Virus record (IMG/VR): IMGVR_UViG_3300029214_000065
Length of the DNA: 5,764 bases
Direction: 5' to 3' (one strand)
From: a virus
In this document: positions 2,302 through 5,764 of the stretch, in pieces
How positions within the stretch are numbered: position 1 is the first letter of the stretch
Layout of the letters: the number at the start of each line of letters is the position of its first letter
Notes under the pieces: generated by a model
Databases searched by the model: none
The model's input: only the letters and a program-made list of their open reading frames with translations
What the model was told of the DNA's origin: nothing
Made by a program: the position numbers and the translations under genes

Positions 2302-2333
2302 TAAAAACAATATACGGAAAATTTAGATTATGA
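2157..2333 (+). CDS. Small extremely basic protein p58 (MDIKNRTPTKWRNKRNRKTRISYKNCIMGKRNQKIRVGNHNHKKDILIIKTIYGKFRL). Candidate ssDNA-binding/packaging protein (phiX J / gokushovirus VP8-like role).
   Basis: 58-aa ORF translated by hand (below the 60-aa track cut-off). It has 19 Lys+Arg against 2 acidic residues. Its TGA stop (2331-2333) overlaps the ATG of p66 (2330-2332) in an ATGA coupling arrangement. It overlaps an alternative ORF in another frame (2146-2301). Confidence 0.3.
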   Translation: MDIKNRTPTKWRNKRNRKTRISYKNCIMGKRNQKIRVGNHNHKKDILIIKTIYGKFRL

Positions 2334-2530
2334 ATGACAAAACAAAACAATTAATCAAAAATATCATTGTAGCCGTATTATCAGCCATATTAACATGGCT
2401 AGGAGTAAGCTGCACTAACATGTTGTCAATCAGTAAAAACAACAAAGGAAGCAATCAAACAATCGAAAACAAAACAAGCGGAGAAGCAACAGCAGACAGC
2501 ACAAGTATTAATTTATTCAATAAAAAATAA
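2330..2530 (+). CDS. Small membrane-targeted protein p66 with an N-terminal signal/anchor (K-rich n-region, 15-aa hydrophobic core IIVAVLSAILTWLGV, then SC). Candidate single-gene lysis protein or lipoprotein/secreted peptide.
   Basis: ORF 66 aa. The sequence is MNDKTKQLIKN + IIVAVLSAILTWLGVSC + a polar Ser/Asn/Thr-rich tail. GVS|C fits an SPase I (-3,-1 small) site or an imperfect lipobox. It is tightly packed with its neighbours (ATGA overlap upstream, 1-nt gap to p88). Confidence 0.55.
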   Translation: MNDKTKQLIKNIIVAVLSAILTWLGVSCTNMLSISKNNKGSNQTIENKTSGEATADSTSINLFNKK

Positions 2531-2531
2531 A

Positions 2532-2798
2532 ATGGAAATAGAAGAATTATTCGTAGTACGACCTGTATCTGAGGAACAAAAAGAATTCATTATAACTGTA
2601 GGAAAACACCTAGCAACGACAAAAAGATTCAAAACAAAAAAATCAGCAGAAACGTATATCAAATACCCTAAATGGGACACCACATTTGCGCTAGTCGCCG
2701 AAATGCTTGAATCGAAAAACGCAGCGGAAAGTCAAATTAAAGAAAATGCTAAAAAAGTAGTAAATAAAATCATTAACGACACAACAAAAGAATCATGA
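2532..2798 (+). CDS. Hypothetical protein p88, immediately upstream of and translationally coupled to the major capsid gene. Possible scaffold or DNA-binding accessory protein; function unknown.
   Basis: ORF 88 aa (MEIEELFVVRPVSEEQKEFIITVGKHLATTKRFKTKKSAETYIKYPKWDTT...). Its TGA stop overlaps the VP1 ATG (ATGA at 2795-2798). No TM segment and no recognisable motif. Confidence 0.5.
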   Translation: MEIEELFVVRPVSEEQKEFIITVGKHLATTKRFKTKKSAETYIKYPKWDTTFALVAEMLESKNAAESQIKENAKKVVNKIINDTTKES

Positions 2799-4735
2799 GC
2801 ATTACAAAATCAATCGGAAAAAACACTTTGGGCGGCGGAAAAAAAATGAACGTCCAAATGAGAAGTTATGAAAGATCAACACACGACCTATCATACGCGT
2901 GGCGCAGTACAATGGGAATCGGAACACTAGTTCCATTCCTATGTGAAATCGGATTACCAGGGGACACATGGGACATCAATCTGGTAGAAAAAGTACTGAC
3001 AAAACCAACAACAGGACCACTATTCGGCAGTTACAAAATGCAAATGGATATTTTCACCTGCCCAATAAGACTATATAACGCACTACTGCACAACAATGCA
3101 CTTAATGTAGGCTTAGACATGAAACAAGTTAAATTACCTGAATTTAACGTAAGCTGTCCAGCAGCATGTTATCCTGAAAAATCGAATGGCAACCAATGGA
3201 TTCAAGTAAACCCAAGCAGTATTTTCGCATACCTAGGAAGAAGAGGATTTACGGGGAGAAAACAAGGAATCTCATTCAACGCAACACCCGAAATTGCATA
3301 TTACGACATATTTAAGAACTACTATGCAAATAAACAAGAAGAAAACTGGTACATGGTTGACTATGACGGATACTGTACTATACAGGACAACTTAAGTTAT
3401 GATAGCAAAGGAAACGTAACAGATGGGTACTTTATATTCTATCCTAAAACAATAACCCAAACAACACAAGAAACAATAGGACCATTATACACATACACAT
3501 TCGGAGAGAAAGAATGGAATTTCACAACAATAACAGGCTGGTTTAATTTCACAGTCAACCAAGCAAACAACTACGTTAAAGTAACACTTAAAAACGAATA
3601 CAAAGCGACAACAACCGGAGTGGGGTTACCAATCGGTGGAAAATTAGCATCAGTAAAATTAATAATGGCAAAATCGATATTAAAAAGTTGGAAACTTACC
3701 GATATTGATGACATAAGAGAAAAAATCTTAGCCGCAGGAAGTACAGAAATATCATTCAATCAAAACGGAAAAACATATCTGGACTATTTGACAAAATACA
3801 CAGGAACAGCCACAACCGGCGGTAGTACTGCAATGAAAAGCAGTTACCCAATGTTCGGACTAGCAATAAAAACACTACAAAGCGACATCTTTAATAACTG
3901 GATTAATACAGAATGGATAGACGGTGATAACGGAATCAGCGCAATTACGGCAATCAGTACCGAATCAGGGTCATTCACAATCGACCAGCTCAACCTTTCA
4001 AAGAAAGTATATGATATGCTAAACAGAATCGCGCTATCTGGCGGAACTTATAAAGACTGGATAGAAACAGTATACACCAATGACTACACAATACATGCAG
4101 AAACACCAGTATACGAGGGTGGCGCATCATGTGAAATTGTATTTAATGAAGTAGTAGCAACCGGAGGAAATGAAACATTAGGTACATTAGCAGGTAGAGG
4201 TATATCAACAGGGCACAAAAACGGTAAATTACACCTAAAAATCAAAGAACCATGTTACGTTATAGGTATAGTAAGTATAACACCAAGAGTAGACTATTGT
4301 CAAGGAAACGCATGGCACACAGACTTGAAAACAATGGATGACTTGCATAAACCACAGCTAGACGGTATCGGTTTTCAAGACTTAACCTGCGATAAAATGG
4401 CATGGTGGAAAGACTACGACAGCGACGGAAAGAAATACGCAGTAGGGAAACAACCAGCATGGTTAGATTACATGACTAACTTCAATAAAACCTATGGCAA
4501 TTTTGCAATAGAAAATTCAGAATCATTCATGGTATTAAACAGATGGTACTACCCAAAAAACTCGTCAAACAACTGGAATACAGAAGAACTAAACACAACA
4601 ACATATATCAATCCTGAAGATTACAACTACATATTCGCCGACACTTCTTTAGGAAGTCAAAACTTTTGGGTACAAATCGGGGTCGGCATCGAATGTCGAA
4701 GAAAAATGAGTGCAAAACAAATACCAAATTTTTAA
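2795..4735 (+). CDS. VP1: Major capsid protein VP1 (Microviridae F/VP1 family), 646 aa. The size is consistent with alpavirus/gokushovirus-type VP1 carrying a large surface insertion.
   Basis: The N-terminal region RSYERSTHDLSYAWRSTMGIGTLVPFLCEIGLPGDTWDINL matches the conserved Microviridae MCP signature (RSxFDLSH..kTTfdaGxLvPi..eVLPGDTf). It is the longest ORF. Alternative internal start at ATG 2846 (MNVQMR). Confidence 0.93.
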   Translation: MSITKSIGKNTLGGGKKMNVQMRSYERSTHDLSYAWRSTMGIGTLVPFLCEIGLPGDTWDINLVEKVLTKPTTGPLFGSYKMQMDIFTCPIRLYNALLHNNALNVGLDMKQVKLPEFNVSCPAACYPEKSNGNQWIQVNPSSIFAYLGRRGFTGRKQGISFNATPEIAYYDIFKNYYANKQEENWYMVDYDGYCTIQDNLSYDSKGNVTDGYFIFYPKTITQTTQETIGPLYTYTFGEKEWNFTTITGWFNFTVNQANNYVKVTLKNEYKATTTGVGLPIGGKLASVKLIMAKSILKSWKLTDIDDIREKILAAGSTEISFNQNGKTYLDYLTKYTGTATTGGSTAMKSSYPMFGLAIKTLQSDIFNNWINTEWIDGDNGISAITAISTESGSFTIDQLNLSKKVYDMLNRIALSGGTYKDWIETVYTNDYTIHAETPVYEGGASCEIVFNEVVATGGNETLGTLAGRGISTGHKNGKLHLKIKEPCYVIGIVSITPRVDYCQGNAWHTDLKTMDDLHKPQLDGIGFQDLTCDKMAWWKDYDSDGKKYAVGKQPAWLDYMTNFNKTYGNFAIENSESFMVLNRWYYPKNSSNNWNTEELNTTTYINPEDYNYIFADTSLGSQNFWVQIGVGIECRRKMSAKQIPNF

Positions 4736-5143: not shown

Positions 5144-5764
5144 ATGGCATTAGGATTAATAGCAGGTGCAGCACTTAACGGAATGGTAGGTGCTATACAA
5201 GGACAAAACCAGTACAATAGAGAAATCGACAAGATGAACTACCAGTACAAGCTAAACGCAGAAGCCGCTAAGCAAAATCAAGCACTAGCAAAAGACATGT
5301 GGGACTACACTAATTATGAAAATACAGTGAAACACATGAAAAACGCAGGCTTGTCAATAGGACTATTATACGGAACAGGCGGAGGACAAGGGCAAAGCAC
5401 CACAGCAGGAGGCAGACAAGAAGGTGTAGATATGGGAACAACACAAGCAGGTGGAATTTCCCTACAAGGAGCAAGCATACTCGCCGACATTAAGTTAAAA
5501 GAAGCCGAAGCGGAAAAAGCAGAAGCAGAAGCAAAGAAAACAGCAGGAGCAGACACACAGTATACGGAGTCACTAACTTCACTTAACAGCACAATAGAAG
5601 AATTAAACAAAGCAACAACAGCACTAAGAACAGCAGAGGCAGGAAAAGCCCAAGAAGAAACAAAACAGATACTACAATCTATAGAAAACATGCAAGAGCA
5701 GCTAAGAGGAATGATAGCTGACAACGACATAAAAGTCGAAACAAAAGAGGAAAAAATACAACAG
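5144..5764 (+). CDS. VP2: N-terminal portion of the VP2-like minor capsid / DNA pilot protein. It runs off the window end and continues at 2-604 (total ~377 aa on the circular genome).
   Basis: The frame is open from ATG 5144 (an in-frame TAA at 5123-5125 precedes it) to the end of the window, with no stops (hand-translated). The N-terminus MALGLIAGAALNGMVGAIQGQNQ is Gly/Ala hydrophobic. MWDYTNYENTVKHMKNAGLSIGLLYG matches the conserved Microviridae VP2 motif (..MSNTAYQR..DmkaAGLNPilay). It is followed by a Gly/Gln-rich segment and an EAEAEKAEAEAKK coiled-coil-like region. Confidence 0.85.
   Translation, partial: MALGLIAGAALNGMVGAIQGQNQYNREIDKMNYQYKLNAEAAKQNQALAKDMWDYTNYENTVKHMKNAGLSIGLLYGTGGGQGQSTTAGGRQEGVDMGTTQAGGISLQGASILADIKLKEAEAEKAEAEAKKTAGADTQYTESLTSLNSTIEELNKATTALRTAEAGKAQEETKQILQSIENMQEQLRGMIADNDIKVETKEEKIQQ
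5671..5764. repeat. Terminal redundancy, copy 2 (identical to 1-94).
   Basis: Exact direct repeat of window positions 1-94. Typical of a circular genome assembled as a linear contig. Confidence 0.9.

Follow-up and report, generated by a model that had tools for sequence, protein, structure and literature searches.

How does a very small phage of the gut leave its host cell when no lysis gene can be recognized in its genome? Few phages of the mammalian gut are as abundant as the microviruses. Roux et al. 2012 (PMC3394797) described phiX174 as the only member of the group with an elucidated lysis mechanism, and M15 peptidases as possible endolysins of a minority of genomes. The IMG/VR virus record IMGVR_UViG_3300029214_000065, a stretch of 5,764 nucleotides (nt) referred to here as the window, raises this question with a single small gene, p66, located on the + strand at positions 2330-2530 (66 codons plus the TAA stop). 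A first-pass annotation had put p66 forward as a candidate lysis protein, and this is still the best guess at its function. The specific reading we favor, to which we give a little less than an even chance, is that p66 acts as a membrane lysis effector of a Bacteroidales-infecting microvirus, possibly holin-like and using an amidase of the host.

The coding sequence of p66 is backed by the list of open reading frames (ORFs), by homologues and by the ratio of nonsynonymous to synonymous rates (dN/dS), and would specify the precursor of a small membrane-anchored protein of the lipoprotein type, 66 amino acids (aa) long (MNDKTKQLIKNIIVAVLSAILTWLGVSCTNMLSISKNNKGSNQTIENKTSGEATADSTSINLFNKK). Its n-region (aa 1-11, MNDKTKQLIKN; 2330-2362, +) carries a net positive charge from K4, K6 and K10 and is predicted to be cytoplasmic. 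It is followed by a hydrophobic core (aa 12-26, I12-V26, IIVAVLSAILTWLGV; 2363-2407, +) with a Kyte-Doolittle mean of 2.55 over 15 aa, which may form a transmembrane (TM) or signal-peptide helix, and by a lipobox, L24-G25-V26-S27-C28 (2399-2413, +), found with a PROSITE PS51257-type rule. K4 and K6 lie within the first 7 residues, in keeping with a lipoprotein signal, and the p66 stretch SAILTW-LG-V-S-C28 agrees with the lipobox pattern [LIVMFWSTAG]2-[LIVMFYSTAGCQ]-[AGS]-C with the Cys at 15-35; lipidation of Cys28 by Lgt and cleavage between S27 and C28 by LspA are predicted. The remaining 38 residues after the Cys are rich in Ser, Asn, Thr and Lys, contain 0 Pro and hold two motifs. The first, C-T-N-M-L-S-I-S-K-N-N (aa 28-38; 2411-2443, +), has T29, K36 and N37 nearly invariant across distant subfamilies, and in the second, A-D-S-T-S-I-N-L-F (aa 55-63; 2492-2518, +), D56 is invariant and S57 nearly invariant (alignments A1 and A4). 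The first-pass description of a K-rich n-region, a 15-residue core, GVS-C and a polar tail was thus accurate. Among the + strand ORFs of the window, p66 is the only one with a strongly hydrophobic segment, here followed by a lipobox, and searches of Pfam, PHROGs, PADLOC and PDB with its sequence returned nothing above threshold.

A chance ORF was considered and is ruled out. Dinucleotide shuffling of the window gave a + strand ORF of at least 45 aa with a lipobox and a hydrophobic core in 0 of 300 shuffles (the same filter was passed by 13 of 878, or ~1.5%, of the antisense ORFs of microvirus loci), homologues number 280 to 2,864 depending on the search, and dN/dS lies far under 1. The ORF, rightly taken as a genuine gene from the start, is uninterrupted in every relative that carries p66. 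In eleven genomes of the window's own subfamily, dN/dS of p66 was 0.04-0.19, with proportions of nonsynonymous differences (pN) of 0.05-0.20 and of synonymous differences (pS) of 0.52-0.83, i.e., with synonymous sites near saturation. Identity to the window proteins in the same set was 68-91% for p66, compared with 51-58% for the major capsid protein VP1, 50-64% for Rep, 52-69% for p88 and 33-49% for pilot/VP2; p66 is the slowest-evolving and most conserved protein of its clade. Recent horizontal transfer as the cause of this high identity is excluded because synonymous sites are saturated.

Within p66, the hydrophobic core and the lipobox form the most constrained segment, with a pN/pS of 0.06 at a pS of 0.57, and the n-region, variable in sequence among relatives yet Lys/Arg-rich throughout, has a pN/pS of 0.33. 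Such constraint on the h-region is not expected of a signal peptide used merely for targeting. Constraint at the nucleotide level or a hidden overlapping gene behind the invariant helix was ruled out as well, since synonymous sites vary freely at that pS and no other + frame ORF overlaps the segment.

Homologues of p66 form a very widespread family without a name. A single-sequence search retrieved 280 homologues of 62-87 aa from contigs of microvirus size, and a profile built from diverse members retrieved 2,864 protein clusters. At least 170 family loci are present in IMG/VR and at least 50 microvirus records in GenBank, the latter from human, lemur, rodent, tortoise, pig and mink feces and with the gene either called a hypothetical protein or left unannotated; literature searches on lipoproteins and lysis genes of microviruses and on the function of smalltalk found no description of the family. 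All full-length members (364/364) have the Cys, preceded by S, A or G in ~99% and with Thr at +2, and the Cys together with S/A/G at -1 is a pattern that a lipobox predicts and that a plain membrane anchor does not readily account for. The helix varies in sequence between distant subfamilies and keeps its hydrophobicity. The mature part follows the consensus C-T-[MLVN]-S-[ML]-S-[IV]-x-K-N-N after the Cys and [VA]-D-S-T-x-[IV]-N-x-x at the C-terminus, motifs whose alternating polar and hydrophobic residues look beta-strand-like. Two long proteins matched by a narrow profile, P0150 and P0152, were set aside as repeat proteins with a chance 'SCTNxFTISKNEF' motif. Two other members, P0141 (L036, 1593-1808) and P0102, begin with Met-Lys-Met, which is the dual-start motif of the lambda holin S; the window p66 has a single start, and the resemblance may be a coincidence.

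The gene also occurs in a second genomic setting. In Dulem virus 232 (L030, 3177-3392) and Tortoise microvirus 40 (L031), it lies directly upstream of a Rep of ~500 aa (498 aa in Dulem virus 232), and the mature part of these proteins is ~90% identical to that of L003, a genome with the gene order of the window. This suggests, from the sequences compared, that p66 has been exchanged between microvirus lineages.

On profile evidence, the N-terminal helix-plus-Cys module of p66 is homologous to smalltalk/DUF6486, a mini-protein of the Bacteroidales. One link is the family member P0162, which shares 51% of its residues with p66 along 59 aa (E 5e-12). It scores 44.1 bits over the full length of the smalltalk model (cut-off 24.7) and passes for DUF6486 with an E of 3.9e-12; its subfamily carries precomputed PF20096 annotation throughout. 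Of the distant family members, 5/11 match smalltalk. Comparing the family alignment with that of smalltalk by hhalign gave 81-89% probability, the 89% being obtained with seven host smalltalk proteins and with the Cys aligned. When the P0162 N-terminus was searched against plasmids by tblastn, 7/7 matches fell on genes annotated 'smalltalk protein' (Bacteroides finegoldii, Parabacteroides distasonis and Segatella copri). As controls for the smalltalk hidden Markov model (HMM), E. coli Lpp, phiX174 E and the p50 family scored <=0 bits. The lipoprotein of prophage L033 (13.8 bits) and the p50 of L013 reach 13-14 bits with this HMM, which hints weakly that these two could also be relatives of smalltalk. 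In the P0162-type, DUF6486-positive subfamily (L222 74-545, L223 4577-5048, L224 and L225), two genes, of 97 and 61 aa, are called on the opposite strand immediately before the p66 homologue, an orientation that is very rare in Microviridae.

In the hosts, smalltalk is 31-42 aa long (e.g., MKKSIWKQILQIIITVATSIVSALGVTSCMGHI) and stops 2-4 residues after the Cys. As almost nothing follows the Cys, the activity of smalltalk must reside in the helix/Cys module, which agrees with the exceptional constraint on the same module in p66.

The genomic company of smalltalk in Bacteroidales suggests what such a module may do. An HU-like DNA-binding gene, smalltalk and an N-acetylmuramoyl-L-alanine amidase follow one another in 5/5 annotated Bacteroidales loci inspected and on the unannotated virome scaffold L229, and in a set of 80 metagenome loci an Amidase_2 gene was directly downstream of smalltalk on the same strand in 57/69 evaluable cases. 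The linked amidase belongs to Pfam Amidase_2, has T7 lysozyme as its best PDB relative over the full length (E 3e-22) and comes without a signal peptide. An arrangement of this kind, with a tiny membrane protein encoded immediately before a phage-type amidase that has no signal peptide, is classical for holin/endolysin pairs. The HU-smalltalk-amidase cluster resembles such a cassette in domesticated form, and in many cases has DUF4248 and DUF3987/DnaB genes and polysaccharide loci in its vicinity (L226-L232 and L233-L312).

No muralytic enzyme was found beside p66 itself. Pfam, PHROGs and NCBIfam gave no endolysin or holin for p85, p51, p58, p66, p88, VP1, p99, Rep, or the stretches of VP2 scanned (the part at 20-604 and the first 61 residues), so for the scanned ORFs the first-pass statement that the genome encodes neither holds. 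Among 140 microvirus loci, 121 carried the p66 family, 5 an M15 peptidase and 0 both, in a sample biased by the way loci were fetched, phylogenetically non-independent and with only 5 M15-positive genomes. Amidase_2 was present in 0/140 of these loci, and an HU gene was found neither in them nor in the window. The M15-positive microvirus records of GenBank likewise showed no overlap with the family-positive ones, and the cultured Bacteroides fragilis microvirus phiHBP1 encodes Peptidase_M15_3 without p66. We regard this mutual exclusion as supportive evidence, not as proof.

A similar exchange is seen at the level of the genomic slot. Within the clade the genes run (p51)-p66-p88-like-VP1, mostly overlapping by 4 nt, and p66 is present in every close relative. 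When relatives were retrieved by VP1 alone, the p66 family occupied 17/26 loci. Another 7/26 (L012 at 2213-2365, L014, L015, L016, L019, L025 and L026) encode an unrelated protein of 49-59 aa with two hydrophobic segments and a Lys-rich C-terminus that looks like a class II holin; it never occurs together with the p66 family, and its carriers have VP1 proteins 40-53% identical and no endolysin. L013 has another membrane protein of 50 aa in the slot, and prophage L033 an unrelated 67-aa lipoprotein (LTS|C32; 5792-5995) directly before VP1, with one of 56 aa in L035. In L034, a Peptidase_M15-like gene and a 48-aa membrane protein (TM48) are placed between Rep and the p88-like/VP1 genes.

In the mechanism we propose, p66 would insert into the cytoplasmic membrane via Sec or YidC with its N-terminus inside and its C-terminus outside, Cys28 would be lipidated, and LspA might cleave before it. 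The functional core would be the membrane module and not only the tail, because host smalltalk has nearly no post-Cys part and because constraint within p66 is strongest in the h-region. In the late phase of infection p66, co-transcribed with VP1, would accumulate and either compromise the membrane in a holin-like manner or otherwise deregulate peptidoglycan hydrolysis. Breakdown of the wall, and with it the release of virions, would then be left to a resident host amidase, e.g., the one linked to smalltalk, or to other autolysins, such that the phage carries only the trigger and the host supplies the enzyme. The case for lysis as the candidate function is strengthened by the lack of any co-occurrence with M15 or Amidase_2 genes in the 121 family-positive microvirus loci, by the position of p66 in the slot where L034 has an M15 peptidase and a 48-aa membrane protein, and by the homology of its membrane module to a mini-protein usually paired with a T7-lysozyme-like amidase. 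A smalltalk-like action that lets a host amidase reach the wall would explain why p66 is so strongly conserved in a phage without a muralytic enzyme, why it is exchangeable with cassettes of M15 plus a membrane protein, why its target would be invariant across hosts while the capsid diverges, and why constraint falls on the helix itself. In its boldest form, which we think unlikely, this would mean that Bacteroidales gut microviruses lyse with a captured and extended copy of smalltalk that unleashes a chromosome-encoded T7-lysozyme-like amidase, smalltalk being the natural membrane partner of that amidase.

Several observations weigh against a lysis effector of this kind. p66 itself stays under the family cut-offs, its aa 11-27 scoring 19.3 bits against NCBIfam smalltalk (NF033879; E 7.5e-4, cut-off 24.7) and the protein 15.1 bits against Pfam DUF6486 (PF20096; cut-off 22.7), and short hydrophobic profiles can converge. 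Smalltalk is linked more tightly to the HU-like gene, upstream in 69/71 loci, than to the amidase (57/69), the exceptions being mostly a divergent smalltalk subtype without amidase, plus one degraded amidase. No publication was found on the smalltalk-amidase pair or on what smalltalk does, and that p66 would depend on a host amidase is conjecture. Holins do not lyse cells by themselves. The single-gene lysis proteins known so far tend to evolve rapidly, and p66 is the slowest-evolving gene in its genome. The sampling of the co-occurrence counts has to be reckoned with too, and the AlphaFold model of p66, one long helix with a disordered tail at a pLDDT (predicted local distance difference test score) of 59, is uninformative. 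Finally, in L011, a complete genome with a 99-nt terminal repeat, and in L023, none of the + frames contains an ORF with a hydrophobic segment, and there is no recognizable lysin. A membrane protein is thus not obligatory in the clade, and the argument by elimination is not airtight.

Lysis by p66 could also be achieved without any host amidase, by blocking wall synthesis as amurins do. For this the TM helix would inhibit MraY, MurJ or possibly, as a pseudo-substrate, Lgt/LspA, with septal lysis upon growth, as for phiX174 E and the levivirus LysM. The single N-terminal transmembrane domain (TMD) and the lack of a phage lysin are compatible with such a protein, and a helix/lipobox pN/pS of 0.06 along with conservation above that of the capsid would fit binding to a conserved, essential host protein. 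The first-pass analogy to phiX174 E and its target MraY was drawn from small size and one TMD, and is not supported: E scores -1.2 bits in the smalltalk-HMM control, the p66 TMD has no Pro, and the p66 gene does not lie inside another one. p66 and E are unrelated in sequence, and p66 has no match to a Pfam lysis family. Amurin-type action does not account for the invariance of the lipobox Cys, the conservation of the periplasmic tail or the homology to an amidase-linked host mini-protein, and we consider it quite unlikely.

Another candidate role for p66 is that of a lipoprotein for superinfection exclusion or receptor masking, like Llp of T5 and Cor of phi80 and N15. The mature lipopeptide would bind a receptor or another outer-membrane protein from the periplasm, protecting infected cells and sparing progeny from inactivation by debris. 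p66 is indeed a small phage lipoprotein by prediction, its periplasmic tail is conserved, and the lack of an acidic surface-export signal after the Cys suggests, by comparison with published Bacteroidota export signals, that it faces the periplasm. Exclusion genes, however, tend to be accessory and to vary along with the receptor-binding protein, whereas p66 is 68-91% identical where VP1 is 51-58%. The gene is present in every close relative and mutually exclusive with endolysin genes, and its signal-peptide part is the most constrained one, the opposite of what a merely secreted protein would show. Exclusion was judged the worst fit of the models, and we hold it to be improbable.

We give a yet smaller chance to a p66 that acts as the colicin lysis proteins, or bacteriocin release proteins (BRPs), do. 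Here a lipidated and cleaved lipopeptide of 39 residues, perhaps with a stable signal peptide, would perturb the envelope, e.g., by activating an outer-membrane phospholipase, and permeabilize the cell. The layout fits, with a small precursor, a signal peptide plus lipobox and a mature lipopeptide that is short and Ser/Thr-rich; BRPs, lipoproteins of 47 aa, activate phospholipase A and kill the cell upon over-expression (PMC2896534). p66 has no match to Pfam Lysis_col even at E<=10, and host smalltalk, essentially lacking a mature part, points to the helix and not to a lipopeptide. Quasi-lysis, moreover, leaves peptidoglycan intact and would trap virions of 25-30 nm, and we know of no Bacteroidales counterpart to the activation of outer-membrane phospholipase A (OMPLA).

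A non-lytic membrane role, e.g., as a tether for replication or assembly, a virion-associated or pilot-accessory peptide, or a modulator of host envelope stress, would suit a gene that lies in the structural block beside VP1, is conserved like a core gene and has a host relative most tightly linked to a DNA-binding HU-like gene, but it is very improbable for a family that moves between architectures (upstream of VP1 here, of the 498-aa Rep in Dulem virus 232) and, unlike core structural genes, is replaced in relatives by unrelated small membrane proteins or M15 cassettes.

Returning to the window, it represents a complete microvirus genome: its first 94 bases equal its last 94 (1-94 and 5671-5764), giving a circle of 5,670 nt, and all genes are on the + strand. 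They include Rep/VP4 (676-1587, +; Pfam REP_ORF2-G2P, PHROG 942). An AT-rich stretch (GC 17-29%) is followed by the small ORFs p85, p51/p58, p66 and p88 and by VP1 (2795-4735, +; Pfam Phage_F 1.8e-13, PHROG 514 5e-47), the end of the co-oriented block p51-p66-p88-VP1. Downstream of VP1 are p99, a + strand gene of 99 aa, and the pilot-like VP2 ORF (376 aa, +), which starts at 5144 and runs across the origin/junction to 604. GenBank phages gave no close match to the window at the DNA level.

Upstream of p66, p51 (2146-2301, +) is a conserved small gene, 48-71% identical in L001, L021, L029, L042-L044 and L046, that in relatives always stops just before the p66 homologue; in the window 28 nt separate the two. 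The frame p58 (2157-2333, +), which overlaps p51, has one weak match in relatives (33%, E 0.007) and is probably not a gene. Downstream, p88 (2532-2798, +) is conserved between p66 and VP1, with 52-69% identity in close and 31-39% in distant relatives. Across the VP1 clade its family is directly upstream of VP1 or one gene away (L033 5461-5811, L034 3367-3705, L035 1883-2242) and shares the motif ...F.I..G.H....K.F.T..EA..Y......W....A...., with no Pfam or PHROG match. One nt separates the p66 stop from the p88 ATG, and the p88 stop and VP1 start overlap as ATGA. Of the translationally coupled block p58-p66-p88-VP1 proposed at first, the spacing and overlap of p66, p88 and VP1 were confirmed; p58 drops out, since its ATGA overlap exists and its frame is not conserved, and the block is better written p51-p66-p88-VP1.

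Scans of the window for sigma-70 promoters and terminators and for a Bacteroidetes-type promoter pattern gave nothing above chance. One match to the latter (TTTG-N-TAnnTTTG; 1888-1920), not significant with 1.4 expected by chance, lies where the p85-p51-p66-p88-VP1 block begins, shortly before the second Met of p85 (~1935).

For the VP1 clade, a single solid host link emerged: prophage L033, on a 104-kb contig (JAZREU010000025.1) of a Paludibacteraceae (Bacteroidales) metagenome-assembled genome. Host assignment via p66 patterns gave no confirmed match in 185,579 reference genomes. A 16,152-nt scaffold from the European Nucleotide Archive (L220) was rejected as a host link and not used: it is probably an assembly chimera, with a GC content of 53% versus 39%. 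It holds ~1.6 tandem microvirus copies (1-6686) fused to Firmicutes-like capsule genes CpsB, Wzz and LicD (6686-16152), and at the junction, which falls between the phage genes p115 and VP2, the bacterial ORF is truncated.

With ~2,900 clusters, the p66 family provides a concrete and very widespread lysis candidate for gut microviruses, with Cys28, the helix and the KNN and DST motifs as candidate targets for mutation, and an unexpected link to the uncharacterized host pair of smalltalk and a T7-lysozyme-like amidase. If p66 does lyse, it would point to a new protein-antibiotic target or autolysis trigger in Bacteroidales and make it possible to annotate lysis genes in microvirus genomes from metagenomes by the thousand. 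If it does so by hijacking a host amidase, this would be a single-gene lysis strategy unlike all known amurins, and holin-like control of an amidase would give a function to the widespread HU-smalltalk-amidase clusters.

Compared with known systems, p66 stands outside all named lysis families and is related to DUF6486/smalltalk, while differing from it in score, length and context. phiX174 E is likewise a small microvirus protein with one N-terminal TMD from a genome without a muralytic enzyme. E, however, is encoded out of frame in gene D, has a TMD that needs Pro, lacks a lipobox and carries a basic cytoplasmic C-terminal domain, whereas p66, which gave no Pfam or PHROG match to the E family, has its own non-overlapping slot and no Pro. 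Colicin lysis proteins share with p66 the very small lipoprotein precursor and a short Ser/Thr/Gly-rich mature peptide, and cause lethal envelope damage on their own (PMC2896534); they differ as enterobacterial plasmid genes that act via OMPLA, with a 19-aa signal peptide versus 27 aa and no sequence relation. Llp (T5) and Cor (phi80, N15) are small phage lipoproteins of the envelope too, but they are accessory early or lysogeny genes tracking the receptor-binding protein, and p66 is near-universal in its clade and above the capsid in conservation. An o-spanin of the Rz1 type would share the lipobox; p66 has 0 Pro, and no i-spanin-like type II membrane gene is present in the genome. Class III holins such as T4 gpT have one TMD oriented N-in/C-out, and p66 is likewise predicted to combine a single TMD, a positive N-terminus and a periplasmic C-terminal part. 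It departs from holins in the lipobox Cys and in belonging to a phage without an endolysin to pair with, and it has no holin-family match (one family member reached only a weak E of 0.049 with Phage_holin_10). The pairing with a T7-lysozyme-like partner is instead seen in the host, where smalltalk lies directly upstream of a signal-less amidase of this type. Unlike smalltalk (~30 aa), p66 has 66 aa, with conserved motifs in the 38 residues past the Cys, and is located in microvirus genomes without an amidase and not on bacterial replicons in HU-smalltalk-amidase clusters. What both share is a Lys-rich start, often with a Trp, an Ile/Val/Thr-rich helix ending in ...ALGV-x-S-C, and ties to the Bacteroidales.

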